From a virus (Duplodnaviria > Caudoviricetes): a DNA stretch of 64,000 bases. A program made the translations under genes and the position numbers. Location of the stretch: positions 128,001 through 192,000 of IMG/VR virus record IMGVR_UViG_3300032321_001270; one strand, written 5' to 3'. A model generated the notes under the pieces. It was not told the origin of the DNA and did no database searches. It saw only the letters and a program-made list of their open reading frames with translations. This document shows, piece after piece, positions 16,777 to 36,195 of this stretch (its first letter is position 1; each line of letters starts with the position of its first letter).

Positions 16777-18261
16777 TTAGCCCTTGGCGGGCGCGGCCAC
16801 GCGGCGGCGACCGGCGACCGGCACAGCGGCCTTACCGACACGCGTATAGATACCGCGCGTATCCGCAGACAGGCAGCGGCCCTCGGCCCACTGGCGCAAG
16901 CGCTCGATCTGCTCAGCAGACGTAACCGAAACCGGAACCACGTTCTGCGCCGCTTCGACGAGCGGGATGTCGAGCAGCGCCGCCAGACGGCAGCAGCTCT
17001 TGATCTCGGCGCCAGTCCAGTTGGTGTCGTCGGGGCGCTCCTGTGAAGCGTCAACGCCAAACTGATTTAGATAGATATCCCAGATCGCCGACCGCTGGTC
17101 AGGGCCGGGCAGATCCACGAAGAAAATGCCGTCGAAACGCTCGGCGCGGGCGAACGGCGCGGGCAGCTGGCTCGCGTCATTGCAGGTGCCGATAAAGAAC
17201 ACGTCCGACGTGTGATCGTTCAACCACGTTAACAGCGTACCGAATAGACGCGCCGACACACCCGAGTCAGTCTGGCCGGAGCTACCGACGCCCGCCAGAC
17301 CCTTCTCGATCTCGTCGACGAACAGCACGCACGGCGCCATCGCGTCGACCTGTCGAAGCGCACGCCGCATGTTACCCTCGGACTCGCCCACGAACTTGCC
17401 CATGAGCGAACCGAAATCGAGCATGACGGTCGGACGACCTACTTCGTTACCAAGTGCCTTGGCAAACTGCGACTTGCCGCAGCCCGGCGGGGACAGCAGC
17501 AGTACACCCTTGGGGCGCTTGTCCACGTTCGTTTCGCCCTGACGCCGCATGGCGCGCAGGCAGAACGACTTGAGATTTTCAAGGCCGCCAAGGTTCTCGA
17601 AATTCGCGTCGCCGCGATACAGGGTCATGGTGCCGCTCTTTTCGAGCGTCTGCGCCTTGATGCCCCAGATCGTGTCCGGCGACAGTTTGTTATTACGCAC
17701 CAGCGACAGCGCGTACGCGTTCTCGGCCTCCTGCCGTGTCAGACCGCGGGAAGCGTCTACGACAGCGTCAACTTCCTGCGCGGTCGGCTTGGTAAACGCG
17801 CAGCCTTCCGGGAACAGATCGTTGCATACCGTCGTGAGCTGCGAGAGATCCGGCAACTCGTGATGAACCACCGTGAACAGCTTTTCAACCTCGGGCTGGA
17901 GCTGCAGAACCGGCGCCACAATGATGATGTGCTTGCCGTCGCCCTTGCCCTGCACAACCCGATTTGCCAGCGCCTGCAGAACCTCGGGGTTACCAAGGAA
18001 CCGGTGGAAGTTCTTCAGCACCAGAAGCATCGGCTGCTTCGGCTGCGGCTGGTCAAGAAACCGGAGAGCCTGCAGCGGGCCGGGAGCCGGAGCAATACCC
18101 GAATATAACTGGCGGTCGATGTCCCAGACGTCGAAGCCCCATTCCTTCTCTTCGGTTACCCTGCGAATCGACGCAATCGCATCGTCGCACTCCTGCGATT
18201 CAACCCAGATGCCGGAAAAGCCGGCGCAGACCAGCTCTTTGATTTCTTTTTCGAGTGACAT
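16777..18261 (-). CDS. Ycf46-type AAA+ ATPase
   Basis: Walker A SPPGCGKS, Walker B VLFVDEIEK, RAERFD arginine finger; inactive N-terminal domain as in Ycf46. Confidence 0.9.
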   Translation of the reverse strand: MSLEKEIKELVCAGFSGIWVESQECDDAIASIRRVTEEKEWGFDVWDIDRQLYSGIAPAPGPLQALRFLDQPQPKQPMLLVLKNFHRFLGNPEVLQALANRVVQGKGDGKHIIIVAPVLQLQPEVEKLFTVVHHELPDLSQLTTVCNDLFPEGCAFTKPTAQEVDAVVDASRGLTRQEAENAYALSLVRNNKLSPDTIWGIKAQTLEKSGTMTLYRGDANFENLGGLENLKSFCLRAMRRQGETNVDKRPKGVLLLSPPGCGKSQFAKALGNEVGRPTVMLDFGSLMGKFVGESEGNMRRALRQVDAMAPCVLFVDEIEKGLAGVGSSGQTDSGVSARLFGTLLTWLNDHTSDVFFIGTCNDASQLPAPFARAERFDGIFFVDLPGPDQRSAIWDIYLNQFGVDASQERPDDTNWTGAEIKSCCRLAALLDIPLVEAAQNVVPVSVTSAEQIERLRQWAEGRCLSADTRGIYTRVGKAAVPVAGRRRVAAPAKG

Positions 18262-22372: not shown

Positions 22373-22537
22373 TCACTTGCGAGTAGTTTCTTTCATGGCA
22401 GCTGTGGCTACTTCACACATGTAGCCCAATACATTTGCCAATCCAGCGAGTCCGTAGACGAAAACACATCCCGTATATTTGAGACTGTCTTCGACCCACT
22501 GAAACTCCCACTCGTTACCCGGGTTATTGTGGTTCAT
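22373..22537 (-). CDS. small hypothetical protein (54 aa, MNHNNPGNEWEF...)
   Basis: Manual translation; TAGGT upstream; one hydrophobic segment; shorter than any ORF in the track. Confidence 0.5.
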   Translation of the reverse strand: MNHNNPGNEWEFQWVEDSLKYTGCVFVYGLAGLANVLGYMCEVATAAMKETTRK

Positions 22538-24446
22538 GGTTAAACCTAATAAAGCAATTAAAGCGCTTGATATGCCCTCCGCGGGCGTACAAACGCTTAT
22601 ACAAGAATTAATCTCAATCGACCCAACGGACGTGAAAGCTGTTCACGAGCGTGCGGTTGTTTTGCAGCATCTTGCAAACAAACATGCGTTTCCGTCGCTT
22701 GAACCCATTCTTCCGTTAGTCTTAAACCTTAATGGACGTCCGTACAGCCTACAGAACCATTTTCCGTTTGCCCCCCTATTCAGACTACTCACCCCTAAAA
22801 ATCAGGTGTGGTGTACAGGGCGGCAGGTATCAAAATCGACCAGCCTAGCAGCGCACGGAGTTGTAGTTGCCAACTCTATCCCGTTTTTCAAAACGTTATT
22901 TATCACGCCGCTCTATGAGCAGATTCGGCGTTTCTCGAACAACTATGTGCGCCCGTTTATTGACCAGTCGCCGGTGAAAGCGCAGTGGAGTGGTACGTCA
23001 ACTGAAAACTCTGTGTTGCAGCGTTCGTTCAAGAACAATTCAATGATGTTGTTCAGTTTTGCTTTGTTAGACGCTGACAGAATCCGCGGTGTTTCCGCGG
23101 ATCGTGTGTGTATTGACGAAGTGCAGGATATGGATCCAGATCACGTACCGATCATCCAAGAGACAATGTCTTACTCGCGCTGGGGGACTAGTTATTACAC
23201 GGGTACTCCAAAGACGCTCGATAACTTAATTTACGGTTTGTATAAACGATCCTCACAGGCCGAGTGGTTCATTCCGTGTCATTCTTGTAAACACTGGAAT
23301 ATACCAGCGCTTGAATATGACTTAAACGCAATGATTGGCCCATACAGCGATCACATCAGCGAGAAGTATCCGGGCACCGTATGCGCAAAATGTCAAAAGC
23401 CCGTAAGCCCACGACATGGTCGCTGGGTGCACAGATATCCCGAACGCCGCTGGCAGTTTGCCGGGTATCACGTACCGCAGATGATTCTGCCACTTCATTT
23501 CTCCGACCCTGAAAAGTGGTCTACGCTCTTGTTGAAACGAGAAGGCTTTGGGAACATGACCCAAGCCCAGTTTTACAACGAAGTTATGGGAGAAAGTGTT
23601 GATACCGGCCAGAAGCTCATCAGCGAAACTGATTTGAAAGCTGCGTGCGTACTAGACTGGGAAAACAAGAAAGAACCAGAACCCAAATGCTTCGCAAATC
23701 TGTCGCATTACAAACACCGCATTTTAGCGGTCGACTGGGGCGGTGGCGGAGAAGCCGGTATTAGTTTCACCGTGCTGTCTGTGCTGGGATTCCGGCCCGA
23801 TGGAACAATCGATGTGCTATGGGCCAAACGGTTGCTCATTGGTGGCGACCACTTGGCTGAAGCCGTTGAATGTATGCGCTGGTCTAACTTGTTTAATTGC
23901 GATTTTGTCGCTCATGATTACACCGGTGCAGGCACGGTCCGTGAGACGGTCATGGTGCAGGCAGGGTTTAATCTTGACCGAGTACTTGCGATGCGGCTCG
24001 TCCGTTCCGCGTCGCAAGATTTGATGGTGTATAAACCACCAACGGAAATCAATCACCGCGCACACTACAGCCTTGATAAGACGCGGTCGTTGCTGTACAC
24101 GTGTCAGGCTATCAAACTAAAGCAGATCCGGTTCTTCCAGTATGACTGGTCGTCGCAGGACTCGCCGGGTTTGATATCAGATTTCTTAGCGTTGGTAGAA
24201 GAAAAAGCCGAATCCCGATTGGGCGGCGATATTTATACCATCACTAGAAACACACTATTGACTGACGACTTTGCGCAGGCTGTCAACTTGGGGTGCGCGG
24301 CGTTGTGGCACGTAAACAACGCGTGGCCAAACTTCGCCGAGATTGCCGGCGTTGCTCGACTAAGCGCGCGCGCCGTACAAGCCGAGACGCCGATGGACGA
24401 CGACTGGGCTGACGACGCAATCGGCAACAACTATTTTGGTTATTGA
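22536..24446 (+). CDS. terL: terminase large subunit, gpA-like
   Basis: Walker A GRQVSKS, Walker B CIDEVQD, coupling motif TGTPKT, Zn motifs CHSC and CAKC, nuclease AVDWG. The start could alternatively be 22572. Confidence 0.9.
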   Translation: MVKPNKAIKALDMPSAGVQTLIQELISIDPTDVKAVHERAVVLQHLANKHAFPSLEPILPLVLNLNGRPYSLQNHFPFAPLFRLLTPKNQVWCTGRQVSKSTSLAAHGVVVANSIPFFKTLFITPLYEQIRRFSNNYVRPFIDQSPVKAQWSGTSTENSVLQRSFKNNSMMLFSFALLDADRIRGVSADRVCIDEVQDMDPDHVPIIQETMSYSRWGTSYYTGTPKTLDNLIYGLYKRSSQAEWFIPCHSCKHWNIPALEYDLNAMIGPYSDHISEKYPGTVCAKCQKPVSPRHGRWVHRYPERRWQFAGYHVPQMILPLHFSDPEKWSTLLLKREGFGNMTQAQFYNEVMGESVDTGQKLISETDLKAACVLDWENKKEPEPKCFANLSHYKHRILAVDWGGGGEAGISFTVLSVLGFRPDGTIDVLWAKRLLIGGDHLAEAVECMRWSNLFNCDFVAHDYTGAGTVRETVMVQAGFNLDRVLAMRLVRSASQDLMVYKPPTEINHRAHYSLDKTRSLLYTCQAIKLKQIRFFQYDWSSQDSPGLISDFLALVEEKAESRLGGDIYTITRNTLLTDDFAQAVNLGCAALWHVNNAWPNFAEIAGVARLSARAVQAETPMDDDWADDAIGNNYFGY

Positions 24447-26001: not shown

Positions 26002-26442
26002 TTATGGATCGCAGTAAGTGACAACGTTGCAGCCGCATTTGCTCGCTAGCTTTATGACGTCATGTGCGTAGACAGCCACGACCTTGTTTCGGTCTATGTG
26101 TCCGGCCGCAATGAGCGCTGTCAGCCCAAGCTTTGCAATTCCGCGGCGGCGATAGTCTGGGTCAACAAAACATTCCACGGTTTGTACAATTGTCTGGCGC
26201 CCCTTGAATTTTTCAGGCCACGGGCGTGTACCCACCCAGCCAGCAAGTACATCATCCAGCCAGACTAGAGCTAGCGCCATTTCTGGGTGTGGGCCGGGTT
26301 CTGGCTCGCCGTACCGCTTGTGCAACTCTTTTTGAATCGAGCTGCTGCTGCCAGAATCAGGCCACGAAAGCCGCGACATAAGCGCGGTGACATCAATTAA
26401 CGCAAGCTTGTTGATGTCTTTGATTTTGATAACAAATTCCAT
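26002..26442 (-). CDS. GNAT family acetyltransferase
   Basis: Motif A FVDPDYRRRGIAK; GGAGG SD. Confidence 0.8.
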   Translation of the reverse strand: MEFVIKIKDINKLALIDVTALMSRLSWPDSGSSSSIQKELHKRYGEPEPGPHPEMALALVWLDDVLAGWVGTRPWPEKFKGRQTIVQTVECFVDPDYRRRGIAKLGLTALIAAGHIDRNKVVAVYAHDVIKLASKCGCNVVTYCDP

Positions 26443-26476
26443 GGGCAGCCTCCGCGCTTACCCATGAATTATACAA

Positions 26477-26549
26477 AGCCGGCGGTCGGACTCGAACCGA
26501 CGACCTACTGATTACAAATCAGTGGCTCTACCAACTGAGCTACACCGGC
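26477..26549 (-). tRNA. tRNA-Thr(UGU)
   Basis: Full cloverleaf: acceptor GCCGGTG/CGCCGGC, D arm GCTC/GAGC, anticodon stem ACTGA/TCAGT with loop TTTGTAA, T arm GTCGG-TTCGAGT-CCGAC. CCA is not encoded. Confidence 0.97.
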
Positions 26550-26555
26550 GTCACA

Positions 26556-27023
26556 TCAAACTGGTTCTGCTACCAACCCTGCGGGCCAGTAGTATGGCAG
26601 ATCAATTGGCTCTAGCCAACCAAACCGCGAATAGTGGCGATAGTCTTTTCGCAGTAGGTTGCTGCGGTGACTCGCGTGAAATGTTTCGTCGCCCACCCAC
26701 GGCGGGTAGCGATTAACTGTTATTTGTGCCCGCAACTGAACGTAGCTGCGCATGAATTGCGGGCACAGTGTGTCGTTGAAGCCGCGGTGAATCCACTCGC
26801 GGCAAACTACTATGGCGTATACAGTCAGCGCGGTTTCAAAACCCAACCACATTCGAACAGCCGGGTGATTGCGCCAGCTTGATGTGCCGGGCTCGTGCTC
26901 GCCGACTGGTACGCCCAAGCAGAGTAATATCTGCTTGCATTCAACCCTTTGCTTGCCTAGACGTTTATTATCCAAGCAGGCAGCCGAGGTTTTAAACCGC
27001 GGCAGCGGCAAAAAGGTTTGCAT
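26556..27023 (-). CDS. pyrimidine-dimer DNA glycosylase-like (MSMEG_6728/DenV family)
   Basis: MQTFLP...LDNKRLGKQRVE..QIL...HPAVRMW...SHRSNLLRKD...LPYYWP. Confidence 0.9.
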   Translation of the reverse strand: MQTFLPLPRFKTSAACLDNKRLGKQRVECKQILLCLGVPVGEHEPGTSSWRNHPAVRMWLGFETALTVYAIVVCREWIHRGFNDTLCPQFMRSYVQLRAQITVNRYPPWVGDETFHASHRSNLLRKDYRHYSRFGWLEPIDLPYYWPAGLVAEPV

Positions 27024-27373: not shown

Positions 27374-30007
27374 TTATCCGATTTCCCGGGCGGCGTTTAG
27401 ATCAGACAACAAGTACTGGTCGCACAATTCTGTTGTTACAAGAATGCCGGGCATGCCGTGAACAATAGCTTCGCCTTTAAAAGCGTCGTTAGCCGTCAGC
27501 TGCTCGACAATCTGTAACCAGTTTGGTGGCAATGCTTTGCAACTATAAAAATAACGATCAATGGCCCTTTGATTCAACCACCAGTGTTCTTTTTTTCGCA
27601 AAATGTAATTTGTCGGTTGATCTTTTTTGCGCGGTTGCGGGAGTACGTCGATTTTTCCGGTTTGTATACCGGCGTAAACAGCGGCTAAAAACGCGGTATC
27701 AGCAGTGGTTTGCGTACTTAACCTGCCGGCGGCGTACTCCAGCTGGAACGTGGCGCCATACGCTGTGTTCAACCACTCCGAAACGTCTGCCAGTACCGCG
27801 AGGGTTGTGTTTTGGTCGAGGAGGCTGAGCCGCATCCTATTTTTGAGGGTGTGTTGGATGTACGCCGGCAGAACGTAACGTAGAACGGAAAAATCAGTTG
27901 ATTTGCTGCTCGCGCGACCGTCAACCACTTGCCACCCGTAACTTTGCGCGGCGGCCGCGGCGATTGAGGATAGTTTTACGAGTAGCGGGCGGTTGTGGCA
28001 TTTCGGAACGATTGGACTCACGCTTGTATCGTCAAACGTGCTCGATACAAATGTTGGCCACAGGCATTCGTTTGTTTTGTCGTAGATGTGTTTGCTGACG
28101 TCGGCGCGGCGCAAAATAGCTGCCTGCAAATGCTCGCAGCCCAGCATCTCACCAATTTTTACGGCAGTGTCGAAGTTTTCGCCTGTGACGGCGGTAGCAA
28201 CATGTTCGCGGCGCAAGATCGGGTTGATTAGCCCGGCGGCAACTGAAGCAAAAATACTCCACGTGAACGCATTCTCAGGACTGGGTGTGAGTAACGTTCG
28301 GATGCTTGGCGGGGCGACTTTTACCGGTTCAGGAAACGTCACGCGGCGGTGTTTTTTTGTAGGCGACAGCGTCTCTGCTGTTGTGCCGTCGTTTTTAATT
28401 TCGTAGTTAGCGAAACGAAAAACGTTTGCTTTGTCATCCCACCCAAGCCGATTTGAAACGTTGATGAATTCCGGGTTGTTCAGCTCTATGGATATTAAGT
28501 GGCTGCGCCGATTCCATGTTCGATCAAAAACCAGCAGTTTGCGATACTGCGCGACGTGTGCTTCCGCAAACGCTAATAATCCCATGCGCTCAATTTTGTT
28601 GGCGCTGTCTGAGAACGGGAACTCTTCGCCGGCAAGATAGATGACGCCGCTGTACGTTTTTTCGCCGTCGTCTGAATGCACGATCTTATTGATGACGACG
28701 TTCGCCGAGCATATGCGTTGATTCGTCACGCTCCACCAGCCGTCGCTACGCGGAGTGACCAACCAGCGCCACGACAGTTTTGGCGTCGTGGCCGACGGCA
28801 TGGTGTTCACCTGCGACAGCACGCGATCAGCAAATCCGGCAGAAAACCGTTCTGATATCTTTTTCAGAAACACGGTCAGTTTGTCCGGCGTGATCGTCAG
28901 GCGGGAGGCGAACGAGTGCGCGGCAATCTCGCTCATACTACTCATGGCGCGGTACAAGCTTGTTTGCCATGTTTCTGCGTTTACGCGCATGGCGGTGAGT
29001 CGGCTCAGCGCGTCTGTACTTAGCCGGCGCTGTAACCGCTGCGTCTGCGACATAATCGTTACGTAACCGCGGGCTGTGCAGGCGCGGCTTACAAGTTCTG
29101 GATTTATGGCGCGACTCTGGAAGATTCGGCTCAATGGCGGAAAAGAATGCCAGTTCAACCCGTAGCTGTTGGCTTCATGTCCGGTATAGCTGCACATTAA
29201 CGGGAGCAGGGGTAGTCCACGCTGCAGGTGCTCGCATTGCATGCTCAGCGCCCAGAACGGATTGTCGACAATGAACTGGGTATTTTTTAACAGCTCTCCG
29301 ACTGGTTGCAGCGCGGTCTTGAGCAGGAAGTACCCGGCTTCTGGTCGGCGGCGTTTGTACCCGGTGGTTGGCACGAAAGTTTGTTTGGCTTCAAACTCTT
29401 CGGTGTATTGCACAAGTAAGACGCCGGTAAGCCGTCCGGGCAAGTCGTAATATGGAAAGACAAGACTCGTGCCTTTTGGGCGGACGCTTCGCGGTTTTGC
29501 CCTGCCAAGCGCGCGGCAGATCTTTTCAATCTGATCCGGGTACGCCACGCCAACTAGTCCGGCCGCGTTGATCTCATGTTGCACGCCCAGCTCGCGGAGG
29601 CGGCACGCGATTAAGTCGTCGCTGTGGTTCCATATCTGCGCTTCGGCGTCAAACCAAAAGTTCTCTATTTCACGGTGCCGGGTTATGGCGCGGTCGTACT
29701 CGCCCGCCATATTGTCTTTTTCGCCGTGATTTACGAGATTTAGGTCAGCGAACCTGTTAAGCGCGTCGGGTAGGCTTGTATTCCATAATGACGCGCCAAA
29801 GGTTATGATATCTCCATGGACTTGACACGAATTACAGTGCAGCCATATACCGTCTGTGGCTAGGTCGTCAAACAGGTGCAGAGTATTCTGTTGACATAAC
29901 GGACAATTCACGACGGCCGGAAAAGTCACATTTTCTGGCGCAACGCCCAACGCCGATAGGGCGCTCACATGGTGTTGTCGGCTGACTAAACAGGTAGGAA
30001 AACCCAT
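27374..30007 (-). CDS. degenerate primase-helicase-like protein
   Basis: N-terminal CPLC...CNSC..HGD.I.F Zn domain, LVFPYYDLPGRLTG primase-like segment, RLGWDD DUF927-like segment; no intact catalytic motifs seen. Confidence 0.6.
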   Translation of the reverse strand: MGFPTCLVSRQHHVSALSALGVAPENVTFPAVVNCPLCQQNTLHLFDDLATDGIWLHCNSCQVHGDIITFGASLWNTSLPDALNRFADLNLVNHGEKDNMAGEYDRAITRHREIENFWFDAEAQIWNHSDDLIACRLRELGVQHEINAAGLVGVAYPDQIEKICRALGRAKPRSVRPKGTSLVFPYYDLPGRLTGVLLVQYTEEFEAKQTFVPTTGYKRRRPEAGYFLLKTALQPVGELLKNTQFIVDNPFWALSMQCEHLQRGLPLLPLMCSYTGHEANSYGLNWHSFPPLSRIFQSRAINPELVSRACTARGYVTIMSQTQRLQRRLSTDALSRLTAMRVNAETWQTSLYRAMSSMSEIAAHSFASRLTITPDKLTVFLKKISERFSAGFADRVLSQVNTMPSATTPKLSWRWLVTPRSDGWWSVTNQRICSANVVINKIVHSDDGEKTYSGVIYLAGEEFPFSDSANKIERMGLLAFAEAHVAQYRKLLVFDRTWNRRSHLISIELNNPEFINVSNRLGWDDKANVFRFANYEIKNDGTTAETLSPTKKHRRVTFPEPVKVAPPSIRTLLTPSPENAFTWSIFASVAAGLINPILRREHVATAVTGENFDTAVKIGEMLGCEHLQAAILRRADVSKHIYDKTNECLWPTFVSSTFDDTSVSPIVPKCHNRPLLVKLSSIAAAAAQSYGWQVVDGRASSKSTDFSVLRYVLPAYIQHTLKNRMRLSLLDQNTTLAVLADVSEWLNTAYGATFQLEYAAGRLSTQTTADTAFLAAVYAGIQTGKIDVLPQPRKKDQPTNYILRKKEHWWLNQRAIDRYFYSCKALPPNWLQIVEQLTANDAFKGEAIVHGMPGILVTTELCDQYLLSDLNAAREIG

Positions 30008-31181
30008 GACAAATATCCCGCTCGATCAGTCACACGATGTCAGTGGTTGCGAAACGCACCGGCTTACCACTCTGTACCCGCAGCCCGACTTTGTTAAAAG
30101 TGCCGCGCATGACAGACTCACCGGCGGCTCTGAGTTAGCACGCCATTTGTATGCTGATCAGCGCAATAAACTTTATCCGTGTCACACGGCGCCCGCAACA
30201 TGGATGTCCGCGCTTTTCTTCGCGGACAAGCAAGCGCAGTTTGACCCGCGCGACGCCGACACTATTAAAACTAGGATACACCAAGCGGCTGAATATTTTG
30301 GCATTGCCGGTGCTGTGGCGGAACTAGAAGAAAAGGTCGCCGCGGCCAACAGCCATGACATTAATGCGCTGCCAGACTCCGAGTTTGCGATTGTCTGGGT
30401 CAGCGACATGGGCGGTAAAGAACGGCACTGGCCGCTACGCAACGCCTCCGAAGTCAAGTTTGCCGCAGCCCACTTCAAGGAATTTCGCGACAACTTTGTG
30501 TTTGCCGACCGTCATATCATCGCCAGCAAAATCCTCGAAAAGGCGGCTGAATACAGCGCAGATGTTTCTGAGGCTGACGGCTCGCTTGAACTTGCTGCCG
30601 GCCTTGGTGCTTGTGCCGCCAAGGTTGCCAGCCAAATGCTTAAAGACCGCGTACGGCTCACCCAACGGCAGCACGCCGATCTGGCCGCTGAGTTGTCCAA
30701 GTTGGCTGAGGTCATTGACCAGAACCCCGAAAGGGCTCGCGAGGTTGAGACCCGGTTGAAGTTGGCGAGCGCGGTCGACAATTTTGATAGGAATACCCAG
30801 CTTTACCGGCTATACGACGCCGGCGGGCTTCCACGGCCTGAAGAAGTATTATTTGCAATCACCGAAAAGGTAGCCCGCGAGTTCATGAACCAGAACGTCG
30901 AAACCACGACCGGCAACGTCTACGCCCTCGAAGATCTTGAGAAGCTGGCGGTTGAAGACGTGCGTGAGTGGCTTGGCGACGAGTTCGCTGATGCCGTGAG
31001 CGCCGGCGGAGTGTACATGGACCGGGACAAGCTCGCGGCCATTGTGCCCACGCTTGACCGCGGTATGGCCGCCACGCTGGACCGACTGGTGCAGCAGAAG
31101 ACGGCCGGCGCTGTTGTTAAGTCAGCGGCGGCGGACAGTCTTCTTTCGCTTGAGCGCCTTCGCGAACTTGCCCGGGGCTGA
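30006..31181 (+). CDS. hypothetical protein with DUF6582-like motif (possible head/scaffold-associated)
   Basis: LPDSEFA...RHWPLRN..EV..AAAHF; related earlier segment KLYPCHT..ATW.SA..F; AGGA SD. Confidence 0.75.
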   Translation: MTNIPLDQSHDVSGCETHRLTTLYPQPDFVKSAAHDRLTGGSELARHLYADQRNKLYPCHTAPATWMSALFFADKQAQFDPRDADTIKTRIHQAAEYFGIAGAVAELEEKVAAANSHDINALPDSEFAIVWVSDMGGKERHWPLRNASEVKFAAAHFKEFRDNFVFADRHIIASKILEKAAEYSADVSEADGSLELAAGLGACAAKVASQMLKDRVRLTQRQHADLAAELSKLAEVIDQNPERAREVETRLKLASAVDNFDRNTQLYRLYDAGGLPRPEEVLFAITEKVAREFMNQNVETTTGNVYALEDLEKLAVEDVREWLGDEFADAVSAGGVYMDRDKLAAIVPTLDRGMAATLDRLVQQKTAGAVVKSAAADSLLSLERLRELARG

Positions 31182-31655
31182 AAGCTTTTTCTTAGGTTTT
31201 CGCTTTGGCTTTGGTTTCGACTGCGCAAACAATTTTGTAATACGCCCAAGCACGGCGTTCGCCGTCGTTTTTTTGTAGTCGACTTTGTCCCACGCTTGGT
31301 GCGTTTCTTTTGCCAGCCCGCGGCGGCTCGCTTCAAGGTCGTGAAACAGGCTGTACTGTGGGTTGTACCACTTGTAAGCGCTGCCCTTGCCCTTGCAGCT
31401 TACGTAGTCGCAAACCGAGATTTCAAAAACAGTGCTTGTCACACTGTCCATGATGATCTGCGCGCCGGCAATAAACCCGGTTGCGCGCGGGTCATCTTTT
31501 TGCGGACGCGGTCCGATGCGAGACGCGTCGATTATTACGGCGTTCCGCCCATAACAATCCCAGCAGTATTTTTCGGCGCTATCAATCGTGTACTTGCACG
31601 CTTGGAAAAAGCGTGCAAGTTGTTCAAACCCGCAGTGGTCAATTTTTGTCGACAT
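31122..31655 (-). CDS. hypothetical protein with basic tail
   Basis: Y.W.CYG..A and AYKWYNP motifs, AWD.VDY. Confidence 0.7.
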   Translation of the reverse strand: MSTKIDHCGFEQLARFFQACKYTIDSAEKYCWDCYGRNAVIIDASRIGPRPQKDDPRATGFIAGAQIIMDSVTSTVFEISVCDYVSCKGKGSAYKWYNPQYSLFHDLEASRRGLAKETHQAWDKVDYKKTTANAVLGRITKLFAQSKPKPKRKPKKKLSAPGKFAKALKRKKTVRRR

Positions 31656-31884
31656 GTGCGATATGTTTTATCCGTTTGACAAGTTCGCGCAACGCCGCAA
31701 GCGCTGGGTTTTCGCGAACCTTGGGCGTGAGAGCGCCCGGGTCGATGTTTTGAGATGAGAGGCCGCTAAGTTCTTCTTGGCGGCAAGATTCTAAATAGTG
31801 ATGCCAGTTATCGTAGGCGTCACGGTCTTCGTCTGATTCGTACGGTCTGTATGGTTCGTCAAGAAGTCTGTCGTTCCAACCCAT
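31639..31884 (-). CDS. hypothetical protein
   Basis: ORF track, operon packing. Confidence 0.6.
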   Translation of the reverse strand: MGWNDRLLDEPYRPYESDEDRDAYDNWHHYLESCRQEELSGLSSQNIDPGALTPKVRENPALAALRELVKRIKHIAHVDKN

Positions 31885-32053
31885 CTTTCTTTTTGTCCTC
31901 GTTTTTGACTAATAGTTCACCGCGCACGATGGACGTGGCTTTGGGCGCGGTTAAGCCGATCTTTACTCTATCGCCGGTAATCCCCAGCACTTTGACGACA
32001 ATGCCGTTACCAATTACGACTTCCTGTTCCTTCTTCCTTGAGAGTACAAGCAT
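31859..32053 (-). CDS. csrA: carbon storage regulator CsrA/RsmA
   Basis: MLVLSRKKEQEVVIGNGIVVKVLGITGDRVKIGLTAPKATSIVRGEL aligns with CsrA; the R6- and R44-equivalent RNA-binding residues are retained. Confidence 0.93.
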   Translation of the reverse strand: MLVLSRKKEQEVVIGNGIVVKVLGITGDRVKIGLTAPKATSIVRGELLVKNEDKKKDGLERQTS

Positions 32054-32063
32054 GATGGCTCCA

Positions 32064-32735
32064 TCATTCTGTTGCAGATTTTTGCAGTAACTCAACCACG
32101 GACTTCGTGTTGCCGTTTTGCAAATCTAACGCCGCGAGTTGTTTGATAAGTAATCCAGTTTTCAAACGAATTGACTGGTTAATGTCTTCTGTTTTTCCGG
32201 CCTCTACGTCATACACAGCGTTGAACATCTCAGGATCATCCGAGAAGTCTTGAATGGAGGGCGACACGCGGGCGGCTCTGAGTGCCACGCGCAGGATGTC
32301 GGGGGCGTTGATGATTCCTTCACTGTCGAGCACGGAACCGATGTAGGCGCGTATCTCATCTGTAAACGGTTCCGGGTCTTCATCGTCGGGCGGGGAGATT
32401 AGCAAGGCTTCTGTAATCCCCCACGCCACTTCTTCGGCGTCAGCGGGATCCCACATATCTGGTCGGTATGTGTCGCCGCCTAGAACGTTGCAAAAATTAA
32501 TGAAATCGGGCAGGCTTTTAAAGAACTGATCTGTGGTGAGAAGCTGAATGGCGACCAGCAGCTTGTCGAGTGACAACTGGGGAAGCTCGACGTCAAACTC
32601 TTCTTCAATTTCGAGGGTGATGGTGGCTGGGTCCCAGTGCAACGCTTCCATCCCAAATTTGTCAAGAAACAGCGTCAGTAGTACTGTCGCAAACGTCTCC
32701 CGGCTCTTCCACGCTTCCTGCATTATTTTTGACAT
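32064..32735 (-). CDS. conserved hypothetical protein
   Basis: ORF track; well-formed acidic helical protein. Confidence 0.75.
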   Translation of the reverse strand: MSKIMQEAWKSRETFATVLLTLFLDKFGMEALHWDPATITLEIEEEFDVELPQLSLDKLLVAIQLLTTDQFFKSLPDFINFCNVLGGDTYRPDMWDPADAEEVAWGITEALLISPPDDEDPEPFTDEIRAYIGSVLDSEGIINAPDILRVALRAARVSPSIQDFSDDPEMFNAVYDVEAGKTEDINQSIRLKTGLLIKQLAALDLQNGNTKSVVELLQKSATE

Positions 32736-33207
32736 TGAGGCCAGCCCTGTTCTCAATCAGCCGCACACCCCGGTGGCGCAGCTCGACTAGATTATACGCG
32801 ATTGTCTCTAGCGGCGTCCTTGGAAGAGTCGTAACCCGTTCTCCAGACTCAAGATCCGTCCAGCCAAATTGCCCGCTCCACGTGGCAAACCGCCCATCCG
32901 CGAAAGCGATCTGTTGGGCGCAGCACGGGTGGTTGTCTGCCGTCTCAGGCCAGTCTTCCATGTGCCGCGACGCCCACATCAGCTCTAGCAGCAGCAAGCG
33001 CTGTTCTGCAGACAGAAACGCAAGGTTTTCCATCATGTCAGCGATCAGGATGTAAAACACCGCATCTTCGGCAAGCGGGGCGTCTGGAGCCGGGGCCGTC
33101 TTTTTCATTACAGCCGAAAAAAGATTGCGTATTTGCAACTTGCTAAGTTTTACGACCCGCATTACCATATCGAGCGTCAGGTCTTTTTTCACTTCGGAGG
33201 TAGCCAT
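32662..33207 (-). CDS. hypothetical protein
   Basis: Protein-like segment from MATSEVKK; start uncertain (33207, 33219/33222 or internal). Confidence 0.6.
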   Translation of the reverse strand: MATSEVKKDLTLDMVMRVVKLSKLQIRNLFSAVMKKTAPAPDAPLAEDAVFYILIADMMENLAFLSAEQRLLLLELMWASRHMEDWPETADNHPCCAQQIAFADGRFATWSGQFGWTDLESGERVTTLPRTPLETIAYNLVELRHRGVRLIENRAGLNVKNNAGSVEEPGDVCDSTTDAVS

Positions 33208-33484
33208 GTCTGTTTCCATCATCGACAACCTTTCTAACATTACGTCTGGTCGCGCTGAATTCGTCGTCAGCGCCAATGGTATCGAAGAACTTCTGTCGTC
33301 GGCAACTGCAAACGTCGTGCTGCAAAAAGCTGCGGAAGCCGGACTGAACCGCCCGGGGGTTTCGAGCGCGAGCGGCCCATATCCGGTTGACGCTGACGGC
33401 AAGACCGACGACGAGTTGATGATGGGCAAGCGCGGCCCGGTCGCCGGTTACCGTCGAGATTTTGTTATCTTAGCTTCGATTTGA
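33206..33484 (+). CDS. hypothetical protein
   Basis: GGAGG-5 nt-ATG; GPYPVDADG motif; stop abuts the opposite-strand stop. Confidence 0.75.
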   Translation: MSVSIIDNLSNITSGRAEFVVSANGIEELLSSATANVVLQKAAEAGLNRPGVSSASGPYPVDADGKTDDELMMGKRGPVAGYRRDFVILASI

Positions 33485-33823
33485 TCAGGCGTCGTCTGGC
33501 CGGTCGACGATGAGCATATCCGTAGGTTTGCCGTTATCAAATCCGACAACGGCAAAACATATTGGTGTGCCGCAATCTATATCGAGTTTCTTGGCGGCAG
33601 CGTATGCGGCGCGGCGGCTCATTGACGTTGCCGCGTGGCACGCCGCGGTAAGTGTGCCAAATAGGCCGACAGGCACGTCGTCCATTGTGTGCCGCCAGAC
33701 GACAAGATAGCCCGACAGCGCGTGCTTCTTTTGGTACTCGGGGCCGTACGGATTCTTTTTTGGCGTACCGGAGGCGCGCGACGCGCGCCTCTTCTTTTGC
33801 GTTTTTGATATTTTTGTCGTCAC
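33485..33823 (-). CDS. hypothetical protein
   Basis: GTGA overlap; YLVVWRHTMDDVPVGLF. Confidence 0.65.
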   Translation of the reverse strand: MTTKISKTQKKRRASRASGTPKKNPYGPEYQKKHALSGYLVVWRHTMDDVPVGLFGTLTAACHAATSMSRRAAYAAAKKLDIDCGTPICFAVVGFDNGKPTDMLIVDRPDDA

Positions 33824-34293
33824 TCTTCTACTCCAAACGTGTCGATATGCGCCAACCGGGCGCAGTAGAATTCTGCGACCATCCCGGCTGCTTTTTGAAA
33901 CCGCTTGACGATATCCGGGATCACTTGCTCATTAAAGACGCGAATGATCACCTTACGAAACTTCGCGATTGCTTCTGGTGTGTAGCCTTCTTCGCGGGCT
34001 TTTTCTGCCGCCCGGCGGACATCTTGATTGCCGTCGAGCTGGACTTGGAGGAAGGCTGGGTTAAGAAATTCAATAATGTGGCCATACGTCTGACGAACTT
34101 CGTACGGGTACGTAACGTCAAACACGCCGGGCCCGGGCCATCGTTCTCCATCGATTATCTCCTCGGATAAATATCTCAGTTTGCCGAGCGTCCACCCGAA
34201 CGCAGCGGCATCGTCATTTGGGTCAGCCATTACAAAAGCTGGTTTTGGACCAGCCGGTGGCTTGTCGAGTTTTGCTTTGCTTTTGCGTGCCAT
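33820..34293 (-). CDS. hypothetical protein
   Basis: MARKSK start. Confidence 0.65.
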   Translation of the reverse strand: MARKSKAKLDKPPAGPKPAFVMADPNDDAAAFGWTLGKLRYLSEEIIDGERWPGPGVFDVTYPYEVRQTYGHIIEFLNPAFLQVQLDGNQDVRRAAEKAREEGYTPEAIAKFRKVIIRVFNEQVIPDIVKRFQKAAGMVAEFYCARLAHIDTFGVEE

Positions 34294-34412
34294 TGTGTAA
34301 TAGCTAAGGAAAATTGGAAAAGGTTTAGTTCTGACTGCGTAGCCGGGAATCACATCAGCCGTCATAAGACGAATAGATGTGTCCCGACTACACAGTCAGA
34401 ACACGCCGGAAA

Positions 34413-34787
34413 TTAATCTCCGGCGGTGCAGGCAAGGTACGCATGATATTGCGCAGTAACCTCAATACGAGGATCGATCTCTTTAAACACTGGCTCATCC
34501 TCCATGGATGCCAGTTCACCACGCAGCAATGCCGCAGTGTACTCGTTGTACAACCGCGCCATATGCCCGCGTAACTTTCGCGTGGTGCGCTTAAGCACAC
34601 GTTCCCGCAGAAACGCTGCTCGCTCCCAGAAGTTCGCTAGCCCCGAGATTTCATCTGCGAACTTCTCTGCAGTCCTGTCGAACAAACGATGCGCCTTTTC
34701 ATCTACGATCTGAAACTCCGGCGCTCGTTTCTTGCAACGAGTGGTGACTGCTAGGCGGATTTTCTCCGCGGTAGCCGAAAGAGACAT
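34413..34787 (-). CDS. hypothetical protein
   Basis: AAGGGAG SD. Confidence 0.65.
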   Translation of the reverse strand: MSLSATAEKIRLAVTTRCKKRAPEFQIVDEKAHRLFDRTAEKFADEISGLANFWERAAFLRERVLKRTTRKLRGHMARLYNEYTAALLRGELASMEDEPVFKEIDPRIEVTAQYHAYLACTAGD

Positions 34788-34792
34788 GCGTT

Positions 34793-35045
34793 AACTCCCT
34801 TGTAACGCGTGGAAAGGGAGCTACTGATACGATACAGTAGCGACAATAAATATGCCGCGTTTTTGGGAAAAATTTAGCGTCGTCTGGAATTCGCGAATTG
34901 CGAACATCGTTGCAATTAAACGACTTACGGCGCAAAGTATCGTGTTCTAGAAAATGGAAAATGCAACCGCCGCCCCGCGCTGACCTAGGGCATGGAGCCC
35001 GTTGGCCGCGTGGAACGCAGCCGTTCAGTCAGCGCAGGGCGGCGG
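34793..35045 (-). ncRNA. structured intergenic RNA / leader (three-way junction plus SD-sequestering hairpin)
   Basis: 18-bp stem 34967-34984 / 35028-35045 enclosing two hairpins; further hairpins at 34795-34820 and 34820-34841. Confidence 0.5.
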
Positions 35046-35075
35046 AAGATCGCAGCCTACACGTGGCAGGTGCGG

Positions 35076-35378
35076 CTAGAACGTGAGCTGTACAGTTTGC
35101 CCGCCAGCGTTCACATAGACCACGCGAATTTTACTGGCGTCAAGTAACGATTTGAGAAGTGTCTTTTTCTCGGAACTCATTCCGGCAAGGCACGATTTAA
35201 TTTGCGCCATCGCACTTCGTTGCTTTTCTTGTTTTTTACGGGCACATGCGCCACACCCGCCAGCCTCAGTGCGGAACAAATCTTTTTTGTTGAACAGGCA
35301 GGGAATGCTTTGCGCGTATTCCGGGTTGTTCATCATTGAGATAATTGTACTGTCTTCAAGTACTACCATGTCGCGCAT
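35076..35378 (-). CDS. Cys-containing hypothetical protein
   Basis: GGCGACA; GAGG SD. Confidence 0.7.
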   Translation of the reverse strand: MRDMVVLEDSTIISMMNNPEYAQSIPCLFNKKDLFRTEAGGCGACARKKQEKQRSAMAQIKSCLAGMSSEKKTLLKSLLDASKIRVVYVNAGGQTVQLTF

Positions 35379-35385
35379 AATAACC

Positions 35386-35913
35386 TCACGGTGAAACTGG
35401 CGCAGGACCGATCCATACCGCGCCGCCGGGCAGCAGGTGGTCTGCCGTGTCTAGCGTGCTCTTAAGCCGCTGAACATCCTCGACAACGTTTTCAATAAAT
35501 TCTTTAACTTCGGATCGCGACCTGAGCAGCACGTCTACGTAATTCAACCGGAACCACGCCGGACGGTCATTTGGAATCGGATCGTCTTCGGGATACTCTT
35601 CCAGATCCGTCGGCGAACAGACGTGGTCAAATGCGCCTACGCGGGCTTCGGCGCCCGGCTTGAGGGGCAGCAGTTGATAGGCGAAGATTTTATCGGACAT
35701 GTCTACGGGATCGCTCGCTGTAATGCGCACCCGAATGCCGTCTGTCGAATGGAAGTTGTAACGACTCACGCTCCATGTCAGTTTTACACGGCGACTGCTG
35801 GTAGACGGCGGCGGAGGATTTAACTCCGGCGTATAAAAATTGAGTCCCAGCGTATCCGGCAAATTGATAATTGGGTCAAGTGGGTCTGGTTCGCAACTTG
35901 AGCAGTTTGACAT
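35386..35913 (-). CDS. putative virion protein
   Basis: ORF track; position at the end of the tail module. Confidence 0.65.
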   Translation of the reverse strand: MSNCSSCEPDPLDPIINLPDTLGLNFYTPELNPPPPSTSSRRVKLTWSVSRYNFHSTDGIRVRITASDPVDMSDKIFAYQLLPLKPGAEARVGAFDHVCSPTDLEEYPEDDPIPNDRPAWFRLNYVDVLLRSRSEVKEFIENVVEDVQRLKSTLDTADHLLPGGAVWIGPAPVSP

Positions 35914-35916
35914 GAC

Positions 35917-36195
35917 TTATCCTTGTAGAGGCAAGACGCGCGCAGTGATGTTTACAGGCCCCGGGGTTGTCGAACGCACATAGGCCAGCGCCAAACCCTC
36001 GTCGTCTGTGATCCCCGGTTGTGTGATTTGTACGGTGTTGACGTCCGCTATGATTTCAGCCTGTCGCCCTGCTACCGGCCGATCCCAAGGATCTCGTAGT
36101 CTGATTTTGATGACAGCGGCGTGCGTACCGTCGGCCAACACATGCGGTTTTGCGCCGTGCAAAAGTTTTGAACGTTCTGGGCTGACGCAACTCAT
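35917..36195 (-). CDS. Big-1 (invasin-type Ig-like) domain protein
   Basis: ADGTHAAVIKIRLRDPWDRPVAG...TDDEG.A.AYVRSTTPGPVNITARV. Confidence 0.75.
   Translation of the reverse strand: MSCVSPERSKLLHGAKPHVLADGTHAAVIKIRLRDPWDRPVAGRQAEIIADVNTVQITQPGITDDEGLALAYVRSTTPGPVNITARVLPLQG

Follow-up and report, generated by a model that had tools for sequence, protein, structure and literature searches.

A small inverted phage gene with conserved candidate expression signals inside its neighbours' coding sequence

The stretch of DNA analysed here (the window, 64,000 nucleotides [nt]) comprises bases 128001-192000 of one 205,188-bp phage-like contig from an uncultured source, IMG/VR record IMGVR_UViG_3300032321_001270. 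Within it, a small plus-strand gene of 92 amino acids (aa; 33206..33484) meets minus-strand neighbours at both ends. The gene is real, it is inverted relative to its surroundings, and both its orientation and the sequence-level signals around it are conserved among relatives. From these patterns we infer promoter and terminator activity, where the divergent neighbour may start and what the layout may do to regulation. The explanation that we favour, with moderate confidence, is that a single gene was inverted and the region was then compacted, with the expression signals lying inside the neighbours and the short palindromes at the two junctions arising as by-products.

According to this explanation, the small gene was ancestrally co-directional with, and directly upstream of, a gene of 150-180 aa, often with overlapping stop and start codons, and in the ancestor of the window's clade the small gene alone would have been inverted in place. 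It would now form a single-gene transcription unit on the opposite strand amid a long minus-strand array. Because compaction left no intergenic DNA, its signals would lie in the neighbours' coding sequence: a sigma-70-type promoter (TTGCTA-17-TACCAT, 33140-33168) within the divergent gene (codons 14-23), a Shine-Dalgarno (SD) sequence, GGAGGT, that doubles as codons 3-4 of the same gene, and a hairpin with a T-tract (33770-33800), within the 5' portion of the convergent gene, that would terminate the transcript. The divergent gene probably gained an N-terminal extension of ~10 residues, with its start overlapping the small gene by 2-17 nt; CATG would be the 2-nt case of this overlap.

The small gene and its orientation in relatives

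The genome is strongly biased toward one strand. A simple codon-model gene call placed ~234 genes on the minus strand and 4 on the plus strand, the small gene being the fifth plus gene; it is omitted from a gene call based on longest open reading frames (ORFs) because the longest minus ORF, which reaches 33429, overlaps it. A codon model built from 85 long ORFs favoured the gene's own frame by >15 nats, and the antisense frame scored as a shadow. The gene was then compared across 42 related IMG/VR loci, 39 unique sequences being used for motif and codon analysis. The identity of the 92-aa protein is 55-91% in these loci, always above the 35-63% of the divergent neighbour, and the pairwise ratio of nonsynonymous to synonymous divergence (dN/dS) is 0.13, compared to 0.32 for that neighbour. 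Twenty-two residues are invariant and third codon positions use all four bases, with a mean third-position entropy (H3) of 1.38 bits and no codon below 0.5. These results show that the 92-aa ORF is a true gene whose protein is under strong constraint, and they support the first-pass annotation, which had proposed a real inverted gene from the sequence alone. The same entropy profile led to rejection of a candidate minus-strand promoter embedded within the small gene, where nucleotide-level conservation is lacking.

A profile search of 1.84 billion representatives returned 116 family clusters (at 50% identity), nearly all of 87-100 aa, with the common pattern RPGxS...GxYPVDxxG...YRxD. Pfam and PHROGs gave no match for the 92-aa protein or 70 relatives, and a profile search of PDB with the family gave nothing credible. 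The protein is predicted to be a small alpha/beta sandwich by its AlphaFold (AF2) model (predicted local distance difference test [pLDDT] 83; predicted template modelling score [pTM] 0.73). Fold searches with Foldseek (PDB and BFVD), in the ESM Atlas (both by features and by shape) and with VIA-align wide yielded only weak hits to a generic alpha/beta sandwich (best Z 7.3; Foldseek E 0.14 or worse). At the nucleotide level, blastn of positions 31000-36000 of the window against GenBank phages gave no match.

Between 32662 and 33429 the minus frame has no stop, and the plus ORF might be taken for a mere shadow, on the opposite strand, of a longer minus gene reaching TTG 33429. However, the extension that such a gene would need (33208-33429) fits antisense-of-coding 15.8 nats better than coding, and substitutions track the codon positions of the plus frame. 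Furthermore, some relatives have stops in the minus frame (in locus L005 it is open only from 3959), and the family stands alone as a same-strand gene in other phage contigs. The codon model, the substitution pattern and the 116 family clusters refute the shadow reading, to which we give almost no credence.

Synteny, which the first-pass annotation had suggested as a check, bears out the inversion. In all 42 loci, the gene order is a 230-aa gene (minus), the 181-aa divergent gene (minus), the small gene (plus) and a convergent gene (minus), with the small gene inverted relative to both flanks. In eight more distant relatives (L014, L057, L058/59, L060, L061/62, L143, L144 and L145), it instead shares its strand with the 181-aa gene's homologue, which follows immediately downstream. 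Stop and start codons overlap in several of these co-directional relatives (TGATG in L014; shared coordinates in L058, L059 and L060), which is the geometry of translational coupling. For L014, homology of the small-gene copy is supported by hhalign (96.5%) and that of its neighbour by BLASTP (2e-11).

The marker for the history of the locus was the next minus gene, the 230-aa neighbour (32064..32735, minus strand; ~223 aa from a conserved ATG), whose homologues are 64-87% identical. On its tree, all 39 distinct inverted loci lie beyond one branch (Shimodaira-Hasegawa-like approximate likelihood ratio test [SH-aLRT] 98), and thus a single orientation change suffices. The co-directional state is probably ancestral, as suggested by its occurrence in several deep lineages and by the one-strand layout of these genomes rather than by rooting of the tree.

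No inverted repeats were found flanking the small gene, which points to an inversion that is old and fixed rather than to a switch. An invertible segment would be in keeping with the short palindrome at each end, if a site-specific recombinase used the palindromes for crossover. Compared to switches of the Hin/Gin/Cin type, however, the segment is without flanking repeats, and it has a single orientation in 42/42 loci despite deep divergence. Its flanks also appear adapted to that orientation, as seen in the embedded promoter-like motif and the probable N-terminal extension, and no recombinase gene is present among the neighbouring genes scanned. A switch is therefore extremely improbable.

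In L057 (2860-4492), a 211-kb distant relative, the small-gene and 162-aa homologues are co-directional with a 195-nt gap, and the 230-aa neighbour has its homologue on the other strand; here the same module has been rearranged in another way. In co-directional relatives, a module of small, 150-aa and 250-aa genes is followed by a gene for a 560-aa AAA ATPase (PF00004; L014:5104-6792 and L058:5450-7153). The nearest homologue in the window (16777-18261, 26% identity) is 14 kb off.

Junctions and candidate signals inside the neighbours

The first-pass annotation had read both junctions to the nucleotide, and its coordinates are confirmed. At the 5' junction, GGAGG (33196-33200, plus strand; GGAGGT to 33201) is followed by five bases and then by the ATG of the small gene (33206-33208), and CATG (33205-33208) combines this start with an in-frame ATG of the minus gene. 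The frame was checked against the minus ORF 32662..33429: CAT at 33205-33207 is in frame with it, as 33429-33207 = 222 = 74 codons. At the 3' junction, the TGA of the small gene (33482-33484) adjoins the stop of the convergent gene (TCA on the plus strand, 33485-33487), forming TGATCA (33482-33487). An SD of six nucleotides is rare in this genome (8/197 genes). Read on the minus strand, GGAGGT provides codons T3-S4 of the N-terminal extension of the divergent neighbour, and it is conserved over the related loci (H3 of 0.34 bits at the third positions of ACC TCC).

The palindromes themselves are not unusual. CATG occurs 727 times genome-wide (observed/expected 1.18) and TGATCA 70 times (observed/expected 0.97), and C is the most frequent base preceding ATG starts (52/152). 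Restriction-site avoidance was considered as their source and rejected, as CATG, GATC and TGATCA are all at expected frequencies. The feature above chance is the arrangement across relatives and not the tetramer or hexamer as such.

Across the 42 loci, the 5' junction reads CATG in 28, TATG in 13 and AATG in one. An in-frame ATG of the minus gene lies 2-17 nt from the ATG of the small gene in every locus, and in those without CATG it falls within the small gene, at 11, 14 or 17 nt. CATG has been lost in at least four lineages, including the nearest relatives of the window, which have TATG and to which the window is sister on the tree of the 230-aa neighbour; there, the only upstream ATG of the divergent gene is 12 nt further in. 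At the 3' junction, the stops abut in 12 loci, overlap by 4 nt in the CTAG manner in nine, overlap by 8-37 nt in 16 and are separated by a gap in five, the spacer being zero or negative in 37/42. TGATCA is present in 11 loci of one sub-clade only, and in L021 the partner frame reads on to a 37-nt overlap. Close packing thus appears to be general in these loci and the specific palindromes do not. CATG is the sole way in which two opposite ATGs can partly overlap. As the shortest packing of two opposite ATGs and of two opposite TGAs, CATG and TGATCA would be geometric by-products. In the literature, TGATCA, CTAG and TTAA are the minimal stop-stop forms (PMC2174442).

The first-pass annotation had also proposed a head-to-head rule, of which this locus would be a second instance. 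This proposal holds in part: CATG recurs at 30005-30008 and 22535-22538 and is the majority state at the small gene, but the repeated losses and the restriction of TGATCA to one sub-clade do not support a rule. The site at 30005-30008 is a zero-spacer CATG at a 391-aa plus gene. At the gene for the terminase large subunit (plus strand, PHROG 675), CATG at 22535-22538 is common to a 54-aa minus ORF (22373-22538), and relatives have CATG or directly abutting CATATG at the terminase start. With three zero-spacer sites in the genome, single-gene zero-spacer inversions appear to be recurrent in this phage group. Between the terminase gene and an 877-aa gene, positions 26002-27023 encode a pyrimidine-dimer DNA glycosylase (PF03013, 2.9e-18) and a GNAT acetyltransferase (PF00583).

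The first-pass annotation further stated that neither end has room for a promoter or a terminator. It is correct that no intergenic DNA exists at either junction; however, conserved candidate signals are found inside the coding sequence of the neighbours. Upstream of the small gene, a -35-like TTGCTA (33140..33145, plus strand; codons 21-23 of the minus gene, L-S-K) and a -10-like TACCAT (33163..33168, plus strand; codons 14-15, M-V) have the sigma-70 pattern of TTGnnn and TAnnnT with a spacing within 16-18 nt. TTG(C/T)(T/C)N, exactly 17 nt and TA(C/G/A)(C/A)(A/C)T are present in 39/39 distinct sequences, the -10 reading TACCAT in 33, TAGACT in four and TAAACT in two. The invariant plus-strand columns of this region include exactly TTG (33140-33142) and the T, A and T of the -10 (33163, 33164 and 33168).

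Three further observations bear on the motif. First, among codons 5-153 of the minus gene, degenerate codons with an invariant third position are only 15, 22, 23 and 139, and the first three of these correspond to position 1 (T) of the -10, to G of the -35 TTG and to the nucleotide immediately preceding the -35. Second, six sequences alter the amino acids (M-V to S-L, S to D) and leave the motif bases unchanged. Third, the sixth position of the -35, a synonymous site, has A, G, T and C in roughly equal numbers, indicating that divergence is ample and that invariance of the motif does not come from close relatedness. Furthermore, the codon behind the TT of the -35 TTG encodes Lys, where the co-directional homologues have Pro or Ile, so the motif looks acquired after the inversion. 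Collectively, these patterns suggest that TTGCTA-17-TACCAT acts as a promoter.

Other elements were noted in the same region. A perfect 9-nt inverted repeat, GAAAAAAGA / TCTTTTTTC (33116-33124 and 33182-33190), brackets the promoter-like region, and its second arm (33182-33190) is the T-tract of the 5' untranslated region (UTR) of the small gene. The promoter scan listed a promoter-like minus-strand site, TTGATA-16-TATGCT (33540-33513), within the 3' end of the convergent gene, which would read across the antisense strand of the small gene into the 181-aa divergent gene.

At the other end, the small gene and its convergent neighbour (112 aa, 33485..33823, minus strand; supported by the codon model) form a convergent pair of real opposite-strand genes with abutting stops. 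The 112-aa gene is found in one sub-clade only, where 16 unique sequences have its conserved core, YLVVWRHTMDDVPVGLF...IDCxTPxCF; in loci that lack it, the convergent partner is another 181-aa gene (33820..34365 in the window). An intrinsic-terminator-like hairpin and T-tract (33770..33800, plus strand) lie inside the 5' coding part of the 112-aa gene. The hairpin (33770-33792) has 10 bp, eight of them G-C, and is followed by TCTTTTG; its folding energy is -23.1 kcal/mol (z -3.05). A hairpin with a T-tract is present 240-370 nt past the stop of the small gene in 16/17 unique sequences with the 112-aa gene, window included, and L028 has only weaker hairpin candidates. Two unrelated stems (GAGGCGCGCG... 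and GCCGCGCTGCG...) serve in two sub-clades, and compensatory changes are seen in L025. In loci without the 112-aa gene, a hairpin occurs 33-69 nt after the stop in seven, and the rest have none by the criteria used. Activity of the 33770-33800 hairpin as a terminator is a plausible reading of this conservation.

The hairpin and T-tract also encode the basic N-terminus of the 112-aa protein (33760-33823), KKRRASRAS or, in another sub-clade, KKxAAPRKxRSAA. As this N-terminus is encoded by an opposite-strand hairpin, the peptide partly mirrors an RNA structure, as it does in L024, L026, L030 and L036.

The start of the divergent gene

The divergent neighbour, supported by the codon model and by homologues, has 181 aa when counted from 33207 (32662..33207, minus strand). 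The first-pass annotation had been cautious about this start, and justifiably, as ATGs at 33219, 33222 and 33168 are all present in frame. AGGT lies 5 and 8 nt upstream of 33222 and 33219, and no SD precedes 33207 or 33168. Evidence for an overlapping start comes from the relatives. L032 and L035 have no other canonical start in the first 20 codons, their only ATGs being those that overlap the small gene. Loci differ in the length of the stretch between the -10 and the SD, by +3, +3, +6, +9 and +12, all multiples of 3, a pattern that by a rough estimate would be ~0.4% likely if the stretch were non-coding. The upstream frame of the minus gene is open in all 39 sequences. Turnover of start codons was tried as proof of an overlapping start and set aside as weak, since antisense in-frame ATGs would be expected by chance in about two cases in three (a rough estimate). 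Judged from these comparisons, an overlapping start is probable for the family. Head-to-head sharing of nucleotides appears to be forced in L032 and L035, and the gene in the window may start at 33207, 33219, 33222 or 33168.

Several observations weigh against the favoured account. The 92-aa protein's own tree has too few columns to place the inverted copies in one clade and leaves long co-directional branches in a polytomy; the 230-aa neighbour was used instead. The promoter-like hexamers match the sigma-70 consensus at 8/12 positions, below the threshold of the promoter scan, and this consensus may not be that of the host. Conservation of the motif could partly reflect the protein (KLSKLQ) or another nucleotide constraint. 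As for the start, ATG 33207 is without an SD, and the N-terminal extension has a dN/dS of ~0.7-0.8, showing no protein-level constraint. The co-directional homologues begin ~10 residues later, near ATG 33168, which is present in 33/39 sequences and would allow a 37-nt spacer. Furthermore, antisense in-frame ATGs are likely in any case because the M-S-V-S-I codons of the small gene are conserved.

The points on the start are those expected if the minus gene began at ATG 33168, the 37-nt spacer were the 5' UTR and SD of the small gene, and CATG were incidental. The high dN/dS falls between 33168 and the upstream ATGs, the co-directional homologues begin within ~4 residues of 33168, and a C preceding an ATG is common by chance. 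On the other hand, this ATG sits in the -10-like hexamer, which offers an alternative cause of its conservation, and six sequences have AGT in its place although the gene is retained. It has no SD ahead of it either, and it accounts neither for L032 and L035, whose canonical starts all overlap the small gene, nor for an upstream frame that is open in 39/39 sequences and changes in length by multiples of 3. A start at 33168 is possible, and we consider it the less probable choice.

At its other end, the divergent gene overlaps the next gene on the same strand by 74 nt (32662-32735). The 181-aa gene ends at 32662. An invariant ATG (32735-32733) is the start of the following gene, in place of TTG 32756, at which the longest ORF would begin; in L031-L035 and L043, the stop of the upstream gene comes ~12 codons earlier.

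Regulation, known systems and significance

The inversion might have been kept for regulation, with antisense duplexes or collisions between polymerases making the small gene and its minus-strand neighbours mutually exclusive in time. The predicted plus transcript (~33175-33800) would span all of 33485..33823 and be antisense to it; it would also be antisense to the 5' message of the divergent gene, with ribosome-binding regions that are complementary by construction. The orientation and the zero spacing have been retained over saturated synonymous divergence (dS >1.4), and a terminator persists, in the form of one or the other of two hairpins, at the distal end of the convergent gene and not beside the stop of the small gene. 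In prokaryotes, divergent overlaps are depleted, which has been attributed to upstream regulatory elements (PMC2174442). However, ~25 loci lack the 112-aa gene and only seven of these have an early hairpin, so the specific antisense coverage is not conserved. Furthermore, a fixed inversion can persist without benefit, and CATG has been lost repeatedly. Retention for regulation is, on balance, unlikely.

A stronger version of this idea is a conserved timing device. A promoter for the host polymerase, placed in the codons of the neighbour, would drive a transcript that both encodes the protein and silences the minus flanks, through a ~300-nt 3' UTR and a complementary 5' end, until the promoter shuts off; the strategy would be common to three inversions, those of the small gene, the 391-aa gene (30006) and the terminase gene. 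We regard this as speculative and somewhat more doubtful than a general regulatory role.

Compared to known systems, the arrangement found here has both familiar and distinct features. First, it resembles the head-to-head overlapping pairs of prokaryotes and phages, in which the 5' ends of opposite-strand genes meet or overlap and initiation signals lie in the coding sequence of the partner. Divergent overlaps are the rarest of the three classes, with 331 cases compared to 1,890 convergent ones in a COG-annotated set from 58 prokaryotic species (PMC2174442), and one published route to such overlaps is elongation of a 5' end as far as a new start codon (PMC2716372). Unlike in the known pairs, the history can be read here, as the inversion of a co-directional and probably coupled gene followed by the probable capture of a new start, and relatives differ in the length of the overlap (2, 11, 14 or 17 nt), the CATG form not being fixed.

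Second, the 3' junction resembles tail-to-tail stop overlaps (CTAG, TTAA, CTAA and TTAG): nine relatives have the 4-nt form, and TGATCA in the window is the zero-overlap form. In E. coli, rho-independent terminators inside the coding sequence of the partner have been documented at convergent overlaps (PMC2174442). The present case differs in that the hairpin lies ~290 nt inside the partner and close to the start codon of that gene, which would make the 3' UTR antisense to nearly all of it. Third, the locus is like coding-sequence promoters and convergent units in having a -35/-10 pair within an ORF and transcription units that face each other. Transcriptional interference and cis-antisense RNA have been described as general mechanisms (PMC5423467 and PMC4519249); compared to those systems, the present locus offers the layout alone, known from sequence. 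The arrangement is of a known kind, with unusually clear comparative evidence for embedded signals, and involves no new mechanism.

These results have several implications. For annotation, they are a warning to gene callers, as the longest-ORF rule swallows the small gene in genomes of this type, and they bring out a widespread family of ~90-aa phage proteins that is without annotation. For the biology of these phages, the locus provides a natural case of a single-gene flip in a tightly packed one-strand genome, in which the neighbour appears to gain a promoter in its own codons, as seen from the invariant synonymous sites at TTG and TA...T, and to shift its start, and a terminator would come to be encoded as a basic peptide segment.

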